Below the pieces are notes generated by a model. It was not told where the DNA came from, did no database searches, and saw only the letters and a list, made by a program, of their open reading frames with translations. Made by a program: the position numbers and the translations under genes. Positions 22,352-29,793 of a DNA stretch of 29,793 bases are shown here, in pieces. Origin of the DNA: Propionibacterium ruminifibrarum (lineage in GTDB: Bacteria > Actinomycetota > Actinomycetes > Propionibacteriales > Propionibacteriaceae); assembly GCF_900289195.1 (NCBI RefSeq), contig NZ_OMOH01000015.1:1-29793 (forward strand), given 5' to 3'. Every line of letters begins with the position of its first letter. Position 1 is the stretch's first letter.

Positions 22352-22436
22352 GCCGGAGTGGTGGAACTGGTAGACACGCAGGATTTAGGTTCCTGTGCTT
22401 CGCGGCGTGAGGGTTCGAGTCCCTTCTCCGGCACCA
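22352..22436 (+). tRNA. tRNA-Leu (anticodon TAG), CCA encoded
   Basis: GCCGGAG acceptor, anticodon arm CAGGA-TTTAGGT-TCCTG, long variable arm, T-arm GAGGGTTCGAGTCCCTT, 3' acceptor CTCCGGC-A-CCA. Confidence 0.92.
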
Positions 22437-24224: not shown

Positions 24225-24557
24225 TCAATTCTCACCAAGCTGTGCTCGCAAGACGTCAACAACCGGGGGCAGGTTGCTCTCAATGGTTTTCACAATGATC
24301 ACACTATTCACGAATGCATAGCCATGTGCCATCCGGTTCCTCATCCCCCTCATCTTTGGCCATTGATCACCCAGAATCGAGAGCAGAACACCATCCTCCA
24401 CATGCATGAGGGAGTCAATCCCTGCCGATAGTCTCATGGCGATGGCATCAAGCGTCAACTGGTCAGAAAGATCTCACGTGGAGTACTCCAACGCACGATC
24501 AAAATGTTCAAGCGCCTCAGTGATGAGTTCTTGAGTAGTTCGGTTCCTACGACTCAC
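24225..24557 (-). pseudogene. hepT: HepT (DUF86) toxin gene interrupted by an in-frame TGA
   Basis: GTG 24557 overlaps the mnt stop (GTGA). The frame reads VSRRNRTTQELITEALEHFDRALEYST-TGA-DLSDQLTLDAIAMRLSAGIDSL...MRNRMAHGY (Rx4HxY HEPN motif). The stop is at 24474-24476. The track ORF covers only the 77-aa distal part, starting at TTG. Confidence 0.7.
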
Positions 24558-25033
24558 AGTGGGACCGCCTCGCCAAGAATGCGTTCCCGCATGGCGGGAC
24601 GGATTGCGGTGTCAGGAACGAGATCGACACCAATTCCGAGAAGTTCTTCGAGCTCGATCTCGAGTCCGGCAAGATCCATGAGCCCGAGAGGCCGCTCCAT
24701 GTGGAACAGCAAGTCGACGTCAGAATCCTCACGATCATGACCAGTGGCGACCGAGCCGAAGACACGAACATTCGAGCCACCCGCCCTCTCAATGAGGTCG
24801 ATGACGGCTCTGCGAGACCTCCTGAGCCTTCGTGCGCGTGGCGTGGTGCCGTGGAAGTGGATGAGTCGTGACACCTCGGGCTGGCTGCGCCCGATCTGTT
24901 GTGCGATCTCGGCCTGGGAGACCCCCTCGGAAGCGGCCTTGCGGACTGCTTCGACCAGCCGGGCACGCGCCTGCCGGGTGGCCTCGTCGGCCTCACGGGC
25001 GATCCGCGCCAGGTCAGTCACCATGAAACTCAT
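24554..25033 (-). CDS. mntA: MNT-type nucleotidyltransferase antitoxin with N-terminal HTH domain
   Basis: HTH segment SQAEIAQQIGRSQPEVSRLIHF followed by the minimal NTase motif GSVATGHDREDSDVDLLF. Start is ATG 25033 or 25024. The remainder of the 277-aa track ORF is an over-extension. Confidence 0.75.
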   Translation of the reverse strand: MSFMVTDLARIAREADEATRQARARLVEAVRKAASEGVSQAEIAQQIGRSQPEVSRLIHFHGTTPRARRLRRSRRAVIDLIERAGGSNVRVFGSVATGHDREDSDVDLLFHMERPLGLMDLAGLEIELEELLGIGVDLVPDTAIRPAMRERILGEAVPL

Positions 25034-25130
25034 GATAGCAAATACTATAAATGCTGACCACAGGGGAATTGAGATGACTGGCTGGTGACGAACGGCACTT
25101 GCCCCGCGATAAAAGTATTCGGCGCGTACT

Positions 25131-25502
25131 GTGGAGACCCCGGTGCGATGCAGCGAGGTGAGCAGTGTGAGTCCCGTGGCACCCGATGAGGACGAGGTCG
25201 CGTACGCGGCCCGTGTCCTCAAGCTGCTCGCCGACCGTACGCGTCTGGCGATCCTGGCGATGCTCGGCCAGGACGAGATGTCGGTGACCGAGATCGCGCA
25301 GGCGCTCGGCCGCCCCATGCCGGCCGTCTCGCAGCACCTCGCCAAGCTGCGCACCGCAGGCCTGATCGGCGTGCGCAAGGACGGCACGACGAACTACTAC
25401 CAGAGCCCGAGCGAGCACGTGTCCGCGTTGGTGACCAACGCGCTCCAGCTCAGTGAGCACGCGCTGTACGACGAGCCGCCGCACCACCGACGTGCCCGGT
25501 GA
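25131..25502 (+). CDS. ArsR-family transcriptional regulator (orphan)
   Basis: [48 protein letters not shown]-terminal SEHV...LSEHAL resembles an alpha5 site. No adjacent transporter. Confidence 0.8.
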   Translation: METPVRCSEVSSVSPVAPDEDEVAYAARVLKLLADRTRLAILAMLGQDEMSVTEIAQALGRPMPAVSQHLAKLRTAGLIGVRKDGTTNYYQSPSEHVSALVTNALQLSEHALYDEPPHHRRAR

Positions 25503-26412: not shown

Positions 26413-26718
26413 TCATGAGGTACCAACGGCACGCGCCTTGGCCACGGCATCGTAGACCCGCTTCACCGCGGGATCACGGTCAAGCCTGGGAGCCGTGAAC
26501 CCACGCAGCGCAAGGCCTTCCAAAAGTCTCAGAGGCCTCGGCCCGTGAGCGGCTTTGATCTCGGCGAGCATCTCCTCGCCTGTTGGCGTGGCAGTTTCTG
26601 TCCAGTAGTTCACTGCCCACATCATAGTGATATGATCACGAGCAAGCCGCACTGCACAAGTTCTGATCACATGGTCGATAGTAGCCGAGCTCCTACTGGT
26701 CTCACACGACCTTGACAC
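26413..26718 (-). CDS. hypothetical protein (the true start may be ATG 26625)
   Basis: Open frame only, with no motif I recognise. GC falls across its 5' end toward the low-GC island. Confidence 0.3.
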   Translation of the reverse strand: MSRSCETSRSSATIDHVIRTCAVRLARDHITMMWAVNYWTETATPTGEEMLAEIKAAHGPRPLRLLEGLALRGFTAPRLDRDPAVKRVYDAVAKARAVGTS

Positions 26719-26882
26719 CTTCCACCAGGCAGCAACTACTTCACAATATACCTATCCAAAAAGAATCGTTTATTAACAACTAAAAGCTGAATTACACAGA
26801 AGTCATTCATTAACACATCAGAAGCTAAAAGCAATCAAACTACAGCAGTCTTCGGTTCTAGCCTCATCCGATAGTACAGTGT

Positions 26883-26911
26883 ATTGTCTAGCCAGACTTA
26901 CTTGGGTATCA
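26883..26911 (+). promoter_or_regulatory. sigma70-like promoter candidate for the island operon
   Basis: TTGTCT - 17 nt - TATCAT, 26 nt upstream of ATG 26937. AGGA RBS at 26926-26929. Confidence 0.3.
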
Positions 26912-26936
26912 TCAACCAGTAATATTAGGATAATTA

Positions 26937-28091
26937 ATGAACAGCGTAAACAGTTCATCAAAAAACAGTGAAACTTTTTCACATGAAATAATGGAAACAG
27001 ATCTTAATTTAACCACTGAAGAATATTCCGAATTTGATGACTTGACACCAGCAAGGGGAAGAATTTCATACTCAAACGCAAGTCTTGATATCGCCGGATT
27101 GGTATCGCGACTTAACAAGGGAGATATAATTACCCCTCAAATTGGGATAAACGATGGTGAGCTAGAGGTAAATCCTTTCCAGCGAGGATTTGTTTGGTCA
27201 AGAAAACAAATGGACTCCTTTATTGAGTCGATGCTGCTAGGATACCCCACACCAAGTCTCTTTTTTGTCAACCAGACCGACGGCCGCTTGGTTGTACTCG
27301 ATGGACAACAACGACTCCAGACTCTTCGAGTATTTTATGATGGCTCATATGGCGACAAGGACTACAAATTATCACTTAAAGGTTCTCCATATGATAAACT
27401 GTCATACGCAAAGCTTGAAGCCGATTCGAGAAGATTTCTTGATAATACCTATGTCTCAGCAACTGTTATTCGACTCGAAGATAAACCACATGCAGTCGAA
27501 GCAGTCTATGATGTCTTTGCCCGCCTAAATTCGGGGGGCACAAAACTGACCCCACATGAAATACGAATGGCTCTCTACAATGGCAGCTTAATGCAGATGA
27601 TCGACGATCTCAACAAAGATAGTAACTGGCGAAATTTATATGGCAGCGATCCTAACAAACGGTTTAGGGATCATGAACTCGTTTTGCGAATCATTGCACT
27701 CTTCAAAGATGAAGAAAACTACCATAAGCCCTTAGGTGGATTTCTCAATAGTTTCGCCCAGGAGTACAGGAACGTCGATGCCAGTTCCTTTAAATCCGAA
27801 ATAGAATTGTTTAAATACGTCACTAATGCATATACCAAAAACTACAATTCTTTATTGTTCTCAACAAGCGAAAGAAGACAGATCAATTCATCACGGGTCG
27901 ATTCACTAATGGTTGGCGCGATGAGATATGCGGCTAAAGGCAATGAACTTACCTCAAATAAAGTAGTTAAAGTTATCGAAGCTCTAAACACAAACCAAGC
28001 CTACATTGACTCTACATCAGAATCTACTTCTGACGACACCAAGGTCCACACAAGAATATCTGAAGTTTATCGCGAGTTTAGTAATGACTGA
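26937..28091 (+). CDS. DUF262 (ParB/Srx-like, GmrSD N-terminal-type) domain protein
   Basis: NPFQRGFVWSRKQMDSFIESMLLGYPTPSLFF...VVLDGQQRLQTL (the QR-x-x-VW and DGQQR motifs), plus the distal FARLNSGGTKLTPHEIRMA block. 384 aa. No DUF1524/HNH-type His-Me motif is visible. Confidence 0.8.
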   Translation: MNSVNSSSKNSETFSHEIMETDLNLTTEEYSEFDDLTPARGRISYSNASLDIAGLVSRLNKGDIITPQIGINDGELEVNPFQRGFVWSRKQMDSFIESMLLGYPTPSLFFVNQTDGRLVVLDGQQRLQTLRVFYDGSYGDKDYKLSLKGSPYDKLSYAKLEADSRRFLDNTYVSATVIRLEDKPHAVEAVYDVFARLNSGGTKLTPHEIRMALYNGSLMQMIDDLNKDSNWRNLYGSDPNKRFRDHELVLRIIALFKDEENYHKPLGGFLNSFAQEYRNVDASSFKSEIELFKYVTNAYTKNYNSLLFSTSERRQINSSRVDSLMVGAMRYAAKGNELTSNKVVKVIEALNTNQAYIDSTSESTSDDTKVHTRISEVYREFSND

Positions 28092-28701
28092 AGAGCGCCG
28101 CCAATGGATTCCAGAAACAGTTGCACATTCACTTAATGAAATGCTGCATTTAGTCAAAGAAGTAAAACTATTCCATGAAAGCGAACCTCTTTCAAATACT
28201 TTGCATTTTTTATGCAACTGGCTTTTGGTTCGTAGCTGTGGACATATTGAAGTGACAGAGCAAGCTTGTATAGAAAATTTATATCAGAGGAAGTTTGGGG
28301 CTGTTGTTTACCACTACCTCGACGAGACATCTTTCAAGACTGGACGAAATCCTCGATATAGTAACCTTTTAATGATACTCAAGCGGATAGAGAACGGTGA
28401 TATACTCGCATCTAATTTAAAGAGTTTTTTGGACAATGATTATCTCGAAGGAAAAAAATACAAAGATTATCTCGAAATGATAGTCGAGGGCAGGAACGCT
28501 ATCGTTCACGGGTATAGCTTTGATATCGAGGCCATTCGAGCCTTAGACTGTGCCAGAGCATCTGCAGCAATTAGCAACTGGTACCTTGAGCAGTTTAAGC
28601 CTGGCGGCATCGCCGAACAGGCTGTGTCGCAAGATGATGAACCGAGTGAATCCGCAAACCACCGGAGAAGAAAGAAGACAGCTACACAACTAAAGAAATA
28701 G
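28084..28701 (+). CDS. HEPN-like protein (MAE_28990/MAE_18760- or RiboL-PSP-HEPN-like), putative RNase effector
   Basis: Near the C-terminus, MIVEGRNAIVHGYSF carries an Rx4H motif followed by G-x-SF. Predicted all-helical. ATG 28084 overlaps the DUF262 stop by 8 nt (ATGACTGA). Lys/Arg-rich tail. Confidence 0.6.
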   Translation: MTEERRQWIPETVAHSLNEMLHLVKEVKLFHESEPLSNTLHFLCNWLLVRSCGHIEVTEQACIENLYQRKFGAVVYHYLDETSFKTGRNPRYSNLLMILKRIENGDILASNLKSFLDNDYLEGKKYKDYLEMIVEGRNAIVHGYSFDIEAIRALDCARASAAISNWYLEQFKPGGIAEQAVSQDDEPSESANHRRRKKTATQLKK

Positions 28702-28924
28702 TAAATCAACAATAGCTCGATAGTTGAATTAGTTGATGATTATTCAACAACTGAGGCGACAGACATAGTGCGGCCAAGGGTGTCGAGGATTGCTGGGCTA
28801 CAGGTGTGACCTAGTTGTTGACGGTGTGGGTAGGGGCTGAGAAGAACGAGCAGGTCCCTGTGGCAGCAGGGTGAGGGTGCCAAAGCCTTCATCACGTCGG
28901 GTCAGCCAAAGAAAAACCTGCTCT

Positions 28925-29057
28925 ATGGCACACCGCTACGTCCCGCTCACCCTCGAGGGCCGTCGCCGCTTAGTCGCACGTTGCCAGCATCTCCCGATCG
29001 CGCATATCACGAGTAGCTCACGGACTTGCGTGTCGAAGTGGGTGAACCGGTGGCTGG
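28925..29057 (+). pseudogene. N-terminal fragment of an IS481-family transposase gene
   Basis: MAHRYVPLTLEGRRRLVARCQHLPIAHITSSSRTCVSKWVNRW matches the IS481 N-terminal HTH pattern (ARLT..GR..LV.R...P.AHVA...G.SR....KWV.RW). Similarity ends exactly where the opposite-strand transposase gene ends. Confidence 0.55.
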
Positions 29058-29062
29058 AGTGC

Positions 29063-29793
29063 TTAGTTGTAGTTGCGCATGACGTTGGTGACGCCGGTGG
29101 GGAGTCGTGTGGCGGGGGGCTGGTCTCGGCAGGCGGTGTGGGGTCGATGGTAGTTGTAGTGGATGTTCCAGATGGCGGCGGCTTGGGCTCGTTCGGTTTC
29201 TGAGTGGTAGGGGCGGGCGTAGAGAAGCTCCTCGGCCAGGATCCGGTTATAGCGCTCAACCTTGCCGTTGTGTCGTGGCGTGTAGGGCCGGGTCCGCTGA
29301 TGGGTGATGCCCTGGGTTTTGAGTCGGGCGGTGAACAGTTCGCTGGTGTAACACGGCCCGTTGTCAGTAATCACGCGAGTGATCTCGGTGATGCGGTGGG
29401 CTGCGAAGAAGGCTTGCGCGTTGCGCCAAAACTCCAACACGGTGGCGGCTTTCTCATCGGTATGGGGTTCGGTATAGGCCAGCCGGGAGAACCCGTCGAT
29501 TGCCGAGTGCAGGTAGGCGTAGCCGACCTTCTGCCGCGGGCCAGCCTTGCCGCGGCCGCGAGACCGCCAGCCCCCACCATCGGGGATCCGTCCGACCTTC
29601 TTCACATCCAGGTGGACCATGTGGCCCTTGTAGCGGGCAGTGATCTTGCCCGGCTTGCGCAACAGCTCGCCGTCGACATCAAGCCAGCGGCGACGATTCA
29701 ACCCCAGCCGACGAAGCCAACGACCGACAGTGGCCTGAGAGATCTCGACGCCTGTGTCGGTGAGCTCGATCCAGATCAACCGCGCCGACCACT
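29063..29793 (-). mobile_element. IS481-family transposase gene (DDE/rve core), 5' end outside the window
   Basis: HLDVKKVGRIPDGGGW (D), ITDNGPCYTS (D), RPYTPRHNGKVERYN (E) and the family-typical C-terminus YNYHRPHTA...VTNVMRNYN. The frame stays open to the window edge. Confidence 0.88.

Follow-up and report, generated by a model that had tools for sequence, protein, structure and literature searches.

A DUF262-HEPN gene pair in a low-GC island of Propionibacterium ruminifibrarum as a probable, divergent member of the PD-T4-2 family of anti-phage systems

We analysed a stretch of 29,793 nucleotides (nt) from Propionibacterium ruminifibrarum (contig NZ_OMOH01000015.1, hereafter the window) that carries two overlapping genes, the first encoding a DUF262 protein (gene 1) and the second a small HEPN protein (gene 2). 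We consider it probable, at a likelihood of roughly 80% judged from sequence comparisons, that this locus belongs to the two-gene anti-phage systems of the PD-T4-2 family, as a divergent member gained by horizontal transfer. We file it there because it has the defining architecture of the family and homologous components.

PD-T4-2 was reported as 'DUF262, HEPN' from Escherichia coli ECOR65 (QOYX01000002, 338334-339873), where it comprises the protein RCO39066.1 and an unannotated second open reading frame (ORF) (Vassallo et al. 2022, Table S2). It protects E. coli K-12 against T4, its deletion in ECOR65 restores T4 plaquing, and the ten systems selected on T4 generally protect against T2 and T6 too (Vassallo et al. 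2022). HHpred in the same study assigned the A component to PF03235 and the B component to PF18735 (97.8%) and PF18737 (96.9%). A first-pass annotation of the window had proposed that the pair is a two-gene defence module, a proposal that the domain calls, the synteny and the hhalign alignments to PD-T4-2_B-positive proteins described below support. It had also held that no named or characterised system has this architecture, which is incorrect: PD-T4-2 is named and validated against T4, and PADLOC holds models for its A and B components. The locus thus matches an already named system, which that annotation had itself set against novelty. It correctly stated that ParB-like and HEPN genes had been associated computationally: Table 1 of Anantharaman et al. 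(2013) contains the entry 'Ribo L-PSP-HEPN ... operon with ParB'. With a computational prediction of the architecture dating from 2013, and its validation under the name PD-T4-2 from 2022, the locus carries little weight as a discovery.

The DUF262 protein and its HEPN partner

The two genes and their junction are as follows.

26937..28091, + strand: gene 1 (A component, 384 aa), the DUF262 ORF
28084..28701, + strand: gene 2 (B component, 205 aa), with its ATG start at 28084
28084..28091, + strand: overlap of 8 nt, ATGACTGA, holding the gene 1 stop codon and the gene 2 start codon, read from sequence

Gene 2 begins 8 nt inside gene 1, as had been noted at first reading, and this arrangement suggests that translation of the two genes may be coupled. 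The mechanical ORF list opens the gene 2 frame at an upstream TTG (28006). We preferred the ATG at 28084 because the N-termini of homologues begin there (MPxWIPTTV against MTEERRQWIPETV) and because two relatives of the locus (L081 and L084) show the identical 8-nt overlap.

Gene 1 displays the DUF262 motifs FQRGFVW (residues 81-87), LDGQQRLQTL (121-130) and RLNSGGTKLTPHE (196-208), and matches GmrSD_N/DUF262 in Pfam at 2.5e-27. Neither protein has a DUF1524 match in Pfam at E<=1, in line with the earlier description of gene 1 as a DUF262 protein with no DUF1524/HNH half. The ParB/DUF262 nucleoside triphosphatase (NTPase) domain of gene 1 spans residues ~74-214 and is followed by an all-helical C-terminal domain (~217-383). 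Among the PADLOC models, NsnA matches gene 1 at 4.2e-55 (185.6 bits, profile positions 42-377 of 385) and PD-T4-2_A at 3.5e-47 (159.2 bits, profile positions 49-361 of 363). The protein has 1155 homologues at E<=1e-5, and 36 homologues with identities of 38-65% show no variation in the three nucleotide-pocket motifs (QRxFVW, DGQQR and RLNxGGxxLTxHE). The AlphaFold2 (AF2) model, with a predicted local distance difference test score (pLDDT) of 84, combines alpha and beta elements in its N-terminal half and is helical in its C-terminal half. The closest PDB structures to this model are BrxU (2.2e-5), the ParB/Noc CTPases and SspE, and BrxU is also retrieved by a sequence profile. Collectively, the Pfam and PADLOC matches, the invariant motifs, the AF2 model and the PDB matches identify gene 1 as a ParB/DUF262 NTPase joined to a helical domain. 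Helical domains of this type have been named ParBDB and are regarded as DNA-binding (Gu et al. 2025). From the model, the C-terminal domain of gene 1 would be of the kind called ParBDB in NsnA, GmrSD and SspE, and thus putatively DNA-binding.

The product of gene 2 carries EGRNAIVHGYSF, in which R137 and H142 make up an Rx4H motif (R137-NAIV-H142). Its HEPN domain occupies approximately residues 10-172 and includes E56 within GHIE. The first-pass annotation had recognised the Rx4H motif correctly and had placed it close to the C-terminus; it lies about two-thirds along the protein (137-142 of 205), and seems C-terminal only relative to a HEPN core of ~170 aa. A word-indexed search with gene 2 retrieved six relatives only, at 45-49% identity. 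The profile built from these seven sequences retrieved 110 clusters at E<=1e-3 from 1.84 billion representatives, mostly of 160-180 aa, and 60 of the 110 clusters were used for all family-level counts of conservation and domains. All 60 sequences have E56 and H142, and 90% or more of them retain R137, G53 and G143. PF18735 is matched by 59 of them (best E 1.3e-20) and the PADLOC PD-T4-2_B model PDLC04028 by 20 (best E 1.5e-10). Aligned with hhalign to ten PD-T4-2_B-positive proteins, the gene 2 subfamily reached 99.3% probability (E 1.5e-20, 152 columns), in a register that sets GHIE on GTIE and RNAIVHG on RNxFAHG; across the aligned columns gene 2 is ~20% identical to these proteins. The AF2 model of gene 2 is entirely helical (pLDDT 92), and the top PDB matches that Foldseek found for it are almost all HepT/HEPN toxins, with probabilities of up to 0.94. 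When the HEPN family profile was searched against PDB sequences, no match was significant, meaning that no solved structure of the family is detectable by sequence. We conclude from these comparisons that gene 2 encodes a homologue of PD-T4-2B and is a divergent HEPN gene of the RiboL-PSP type. The AF2 models of both proteins are consistent with the DUF262 and HEPN calls. At the level of predicted residues, both the nucleotide pocket of gene 1 (QRxFVW / DGQQR / NxGG...HE) and the E...Rx4H catalytic signature of gene 2 are intact.

The match of gene 1 to GmrSD_N and its structural resemblance to BrxU and SspE raise another explanation, in which a GmrSD-like type IV restriction enzyme directed at modified phage DNA is divided between the two genes, with gene 2 as its nuclease half. 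T-even phages contain modified cytosine, and PD-T4-2 acts on T4, with the T4-selected systems generally extending to T2 and T6. However, gene 2 has no DUF1524 or HNH signal, and HEPN_RiboL-PSP with Rx4H is an RNase signature; a DUF262 half that senses modified DNA would also be compatible with a PD-T4-2-type system. Because DUF1524 is missing, the locus does not qualify as a GmrSD-type enzyme, and we regard the split-enzyme explanation as highly unlikely.

Gene 2 belongs to a subfamily of about seven 90%-identity clusters whose HEPN proteins measure 205-219 aa. Members carry a C-terminal extension of ~30 aa with a basic tail (residues ~172-205, window positions 28596-28698), which is missing from typical family members of 160-170 aa and is seen in the homologues P0002-P0007. 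Conserved positions in the extension follow F-x-P-x-G-x-A-E and S-x-N-x-x-R-R-x-x-x-A, and the model predicts it to be helical at a pLDDT of ~80. The subfamily is further marked by the 8-nt gene overlap, by low GC content in two high-GC contexts (the window and L081) and by having no match among the current PADLOC B models. We think it unlikely that these marks denote a functionally distinct DUF262-HEPN variant, one with a different trigger or RNA target, or with an extra interaction surface. The extended C-terminal tail, the B-model miss and the markedly foreign GC of the cassette are of minor interest.

As a separate observation, gene 2 contains a near-perfect direct repeat of 17 nt at 28433-28476 (ACAATGATTATCTCGAA / ACAAAGATTATCTCGAA, spaced 27 nt), which encodes DYLE...DYLE and maps to a loop that varies across the family alignment. 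It may be a small internal duplication.

Pairing of the two families across genomes and plasmids

The gene 1 alignment was used to scan one genome per species for synteny, yielding 80 loci (L001-L080). A HEPN gene accompanies the gene 1 relative on the same strand in 78 of the 80, which agrees with the earlier expectation that the two families would be syntenic elsewhere. An ORF matching the gene 2 family hidden Markov model (HMM) is present in 77 loci, and the 78th holds an N-terminal fragment at a contig end; two loci have no HEPN gene. The HEPN ORF lies directly downstream on the same strand in 74 of the 80 loci, mostly overlapping by 4 or 1 nt or abutting, and in three loci insertions part the two genes. 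All 74 adjacent downstream partners contain Rx4H. The hosts include Actinomycetota, Chloroflexota, Acidobacteriota, Pseudomonadota, Cyanobacteria, Gemmatimonadota, Rhodothermales, a Brocadiaceae genome and others.

Clustering of all flanking ORFs in the 80 loci revealed no conserved third gene. The sole recurrent extra cluster was rejected: it was a shadow ORF, antisense to the DUF262 gene and contained within it, in high-GC genomes. The GC content of the pair is below that of its flanks by a median of 10 points; the deficit exceeds 3 points in 67 of 74 loci, and an excess of more than 3 points occurs in none of the 74. Identity to the window proteins over the 74 pairs is ~39% for the gene 1 relatives and ~25% for the gene 2 relatives, indicating that the B component diverges faster than A. 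The pair is inherited together as a self-contained cassette in many phyla.

The closest contig-borne relative (L081) is 65% identical in gene 1 and 49% in gene 2. In this contig (1915-7762) the pair directly follows the gene of a large restriction-modification enzyme of Type ISP (Helicase_C, ISP_coupler, N6_Mtase, Type_ISP_C) and precedes Transposase_mut genes, at 43% GC beside DNA of 69% GC. The setting is defence-island-like.

Pairs of this kind are also found on plasmids. On a Kocuria rosea plasmid and an E. coli IncX1 plasmid, the Prokaryotic Genome Annotation Pipeline (PGAP) labels the two genes 'DUF262 domain-containing protein' and then 'HEPN domain-containing protein'. The HEPN partners of these two plasmid pairs match PF18735 at 3.6e-12 and 2.9e-13, with no PADLOC PD-T4-2_B match. 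The IncX1 pair (L086; NZ_CP047580.1, 21371-23011) is the one with the 2.9e-13 partner, and on IncX1 plasmids the DUF262-HEPN pair stands directly behind the replication-initiation gene and ahead of hns/topB. Gene 1 matches 732 plasmid records, 521 of them from Escherichia and 532 conjugative, and the HEPN neighbour was confirmed in the two inspected. Gene 2 and the IncX1 HEPN partner show no detectable direct similarity by BLASTP or hhalign, though both are PF18735 proteins, implying that the B component is very divergent within PF18735.

This distribution bears on the possibility of a mainly toxin-antitoxin or addiction role, in which a HEPN toxin and a DUF262 antitoxin stabilise mobile DNA rather than act against phages. 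HEPN RNases are the toxins of HepT-MntA, the system to which the PDB matches of gene 2 lead, and the upstream partner overlaps the presumed toxin gene, as in toxin-antitoxin operons. The contexts are mobile, with the pair common on conjugative plasmids and set directly behind the IncX1 replication gene, and the GC content falls under that of the flanks in the 67 of 74 loci counted above. On the other hand, the named relative PD-T4-2 protects against phage both from its native chromosome and when cloned, and a 384-aa NTPase with conserved catalytic motifs exceeds what an antitoxin needs. The two roles can moreover coexist, and a primarily addictive function appears to us quite unlikely.

Several results weigh against the assignment to PD-T4-2. 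Gene 2 alone scores 20.3 bits (5.8e-4) on PF18735 HEPN_RiboL-PSP, below the gathering score of 28.4, so that the HEPN call of the first reading stands by profile HMM for the family and not for gene 2 itself; its 49%-identical contig-borne relative reaches 30.6 bits, above that score. None of the three PADLOC PD-T4-2_B models matches gene 2 at E<=1, and its NCBIfam and PADLOC scans gave no defence-family match. The Foldseek HEPN matches are weak (E 0.2-1, target-normalised template modelling score 0.46-0.59). The likeness to PD-T4-2 was drawn at one remove, through the PADLOC models and model-positive proteins. No account of the mechanism of PD-T4-2 or of other DUF262-HEPN systems was found in the literature on PD-T4-2, and reviews and the Menshen study count it among the DUF262 systems with no DUF1524 that 'remain largely uncharacterized'. 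Lastly, gene 1 scores higher on NsnA (185.6 bits) than on PD-T4-2_A (159.2 bits). We did not count the null PADLOC and NCBIfam scans against the HEPN call itself, since the family-level and profile-profile tests were positive. The order of the A models likewise does not separate Menshen from PD-T4-2, because HEPN-paired DUF262 proteins rank in the same way: in one such pair, whose HEPN protein is strongly PD-T4-2_B-positive, the DUF262 protein too scores higher on NsnA than on PD-T4-2_A.

The NsnA match, the best in PADLOC for gene 1, is also what would make the locus a remnant or variant of Menshen, with gene 1 as NsnA and with NsnB and NsnC lost or replaced. NsnA has the identical DUF262 and ParBDB architecture. 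Yet no ABC-ATPase/DUF3696 or NsnC-like gene is present beside the pair, and its right flank is insertion sequence (IS) debris. Furthermore, the partner is HEPN in 78 of the 80 related loci, with neither a conserved ATPase gene nor any other conserved third gene, and NsnA beats PD-T4-2_A even for the partners of PD-T4-2_B-positive HEPN proteins, so that the ranking reflects model breadth and not system type. A Menshen origin is therefore very improbable. We dropped the Menshen identity suggested by the best match on the basis of gene context and of NsnA outscoring PD-T4-2_A on all HEPN-paired DUF262 proteins examined.

The assignment to the PD-T4-2 family has consequences for automated detection. 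In PADLOC-DB v2.0.0, PD-T4-2_B has no match at E<=0.001 for the HEPN proteins of L001, L053, L081, L085 and L086. The HEPN partner of L027, alone among six additional syntenic pairs, has a marginal match. The NsnA model scores above PD-T4-2_A on every A component examined. Automated tools may hence under-call PD-T4-2 or leave orphan NsnA matches. The PADLOC-DB v2 B models miss many members, including the window locus, several actinobacterial and plasmid pairs and the common IncX1 pair, and for this reason census figures for PD-T4-2 are probably too low. The NsnA and PD-T4-2_A models cannot tell Menshen from PD-T4-2 without gene context. The PD-T4-2 family, meanwhile, reaches well into Actinomycetota and other phyla.

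The low-GC island and its surroundings

The pair lies alone in a low-GC island, as the first-pass annotation had described, with 41.0% GC against 70.4% for window positions 1-26400 of the P. ruminifibrarum contig. The features of the island and its edges, the right one of which is IS debris, are listed below.

26720..28760, no strand: low-GC island of ~41% GC carrying only gene 1 and gene 2, from the composition profile; edges approximate
26413-26718, - strand: ORF of 101 aa adjoining the left edge of the island, with no Pfam match; the fall in GC begins at its start codon
26884-26912, + strand: candidate sigma-70-like promoter of gene 1, TTGTCT-17-TATCAT, from a consensus scan only (9/12 positions)
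26927-26930, + strand: candidate Shine-Dalgarno sequence AGGA of gene 1, 6 nt ahead of the ATG, read from sequence
28871-29203, + strand: short ORF with no Pfam match, in the IS debris stretch 28871-29779
29063-29779, - strand: rve/rve_3 integrase-core transposase ORF (rve-type IS), from Pfam; starts close to the window end

The sigma-70 consensus scan found 9 sites where 4.4 were expected. No flanking repeats marking the island ends were found beyond short, low-identity chance matches, and Rfam and tRNA scans gave no match within the gene pair.

These features relate to a further explanation, in which the pair would be inert cargo that arrived recently as a cassette and is either unexpressed or decaying in its host. 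Its codon usage is extremely foreign (41% GC in a 70% GC genome), IS fragments occupy its flanks, and the evidence for a promoter is a consensus match only. Nevertheless, both ORFs are intact, every catalytic motif is kept, and the overlap and the Shine-Dalgarno sequence are preserved. We accordingly give little credence to inert cargo, compared with a member of the PD-T4-2 family that retains its parts.

The neighbours of the pair within the window, by Pfam, are a HepT-like/MNT toxin-antitoxin pair, an ArsR regulator, a weak SUKH match and the rve-type IS transposase, which bears out the initial account of toxin-antitoxin, immunity and IS surroundings. The HEPN-MNT toxin-antitoxin pair is separate from the DUF262-HEPN pair and lies 2.5 kb upstream of gene 1 (24225-25387, - strand). 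Its HepT-like ORF (24225-24458, 77 aa) matches PF01934 at 1.7e-09 over profile positions 37-118 of 120, and may be N-terminally truncated or mis-started; the ORF upstream of it has NTP_transf_2 (1e-11) and a weak helix-turn-helix match. A tRNA-Leu(tag) gene is located at 22352-22436 (+ strand). In the ~7 kb that follow it, to 29793, GC is lower and uneven (0.56-0.69, then 0.40), and this stretch contains a major facilitator superfamily transporter, the toxin-antitoxin pair, ArsR, the SUKH-like gene, the DUF262-HEPN pair and IS fragments. The stretch beside tRNA-Leu(tag) may be a variable or integration region.

Proposed mechanism and relation to named systems

By analogy with the DUF262 literature (GmrSD, BrxU, SspE) and with HEPN biology, we propose that the A protein would keep the HEPN protein inactive in a complex and serve as its sensor. 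Upon infection, A would bind phage DNA, possibly modified or otherwise non-self, as GmrSD, BrxU and SspE do, and the binding and hydrolysis of nucleoside triphosphate (NTP) would shift its conformation. This switch would free or activate a HEPN dimer, which would cut RNA and halt phage multiplication, perhaps by stopping the growth of the infected cell or killing it. The sensor plus suicide-effector arrangement suggested by the first-pass annotation is likewise a hypothesis for the family as a whole. If this holds, the locus could be an entry point to a ParB-type NTP-gated switch controlling an RNase, a value that it has because no mechanism or structure was found for any DUF262-HEPN system.

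Among the named systems, HepT-MntA resembles the pair in its compact HEPN protein with Rx4H, which for gene 2 is predicted to be all-helical and finds HepT toxins as its top, though weak, PDB fold matches. Its partner is a nucleotidyltransferase that AMPylates the toxin, whereas the partner here is a DUF262 NTPase, and gene 2 belongs with PF18735 rather than PF01934. The HepT/MNT pair of the window itself is unrelated to gene 2.

GmrSD, BrxU and SspE share with gene 1 the N-terminal DUF262 NTPase with DGQQR, and BrxU is its best structural match (2.2e-5). In those systems a DUF1524 HNH DNase or nickase is fused to this domain, in contrast to the separate predicted RNase of the present pair.

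In Menshen (NsnABC; Millman et al. 2022; Gu et al. 2025), the A component is likewise a ParB-DUF262 protein with ParBDB, the best PADLOC match of gene 1 being NsnA, and the proposed logic is the same, with a DNA-sensing DUF262 protein governing an RNase effector. The pair differs in having neither the NsnB ABC-ATPase transducer nor the NsnC effector (inPIN and BECR-type); its predicted effector is a HEPN protein encoded directly downstream.

The RiboL-PSP-HEPN family (Anantharaman et al. 2013; PF18735) corresponds to gene 2 in both family assignment and 'operon with ParB' context. Taken alone, gene 2 scores under the Pfam gathering threshold.

PD-T4-2 is the system to which we assign the locus. 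Gene 2 differs from its B component in length (205 aa against about 165) and in the C-terminal extension, and it escapes all three PADLOC PD-T4-2_B models; the locus, moreover, comes from an actinobacterial host and lies within a low-GC island. Both consist of two co-directional genes, a DUF262 gene (~365-385 aa, with no DUF1524) and then a small RiboL-PSP-type HEPN gene, in the order A then B and as the only components of the locus.

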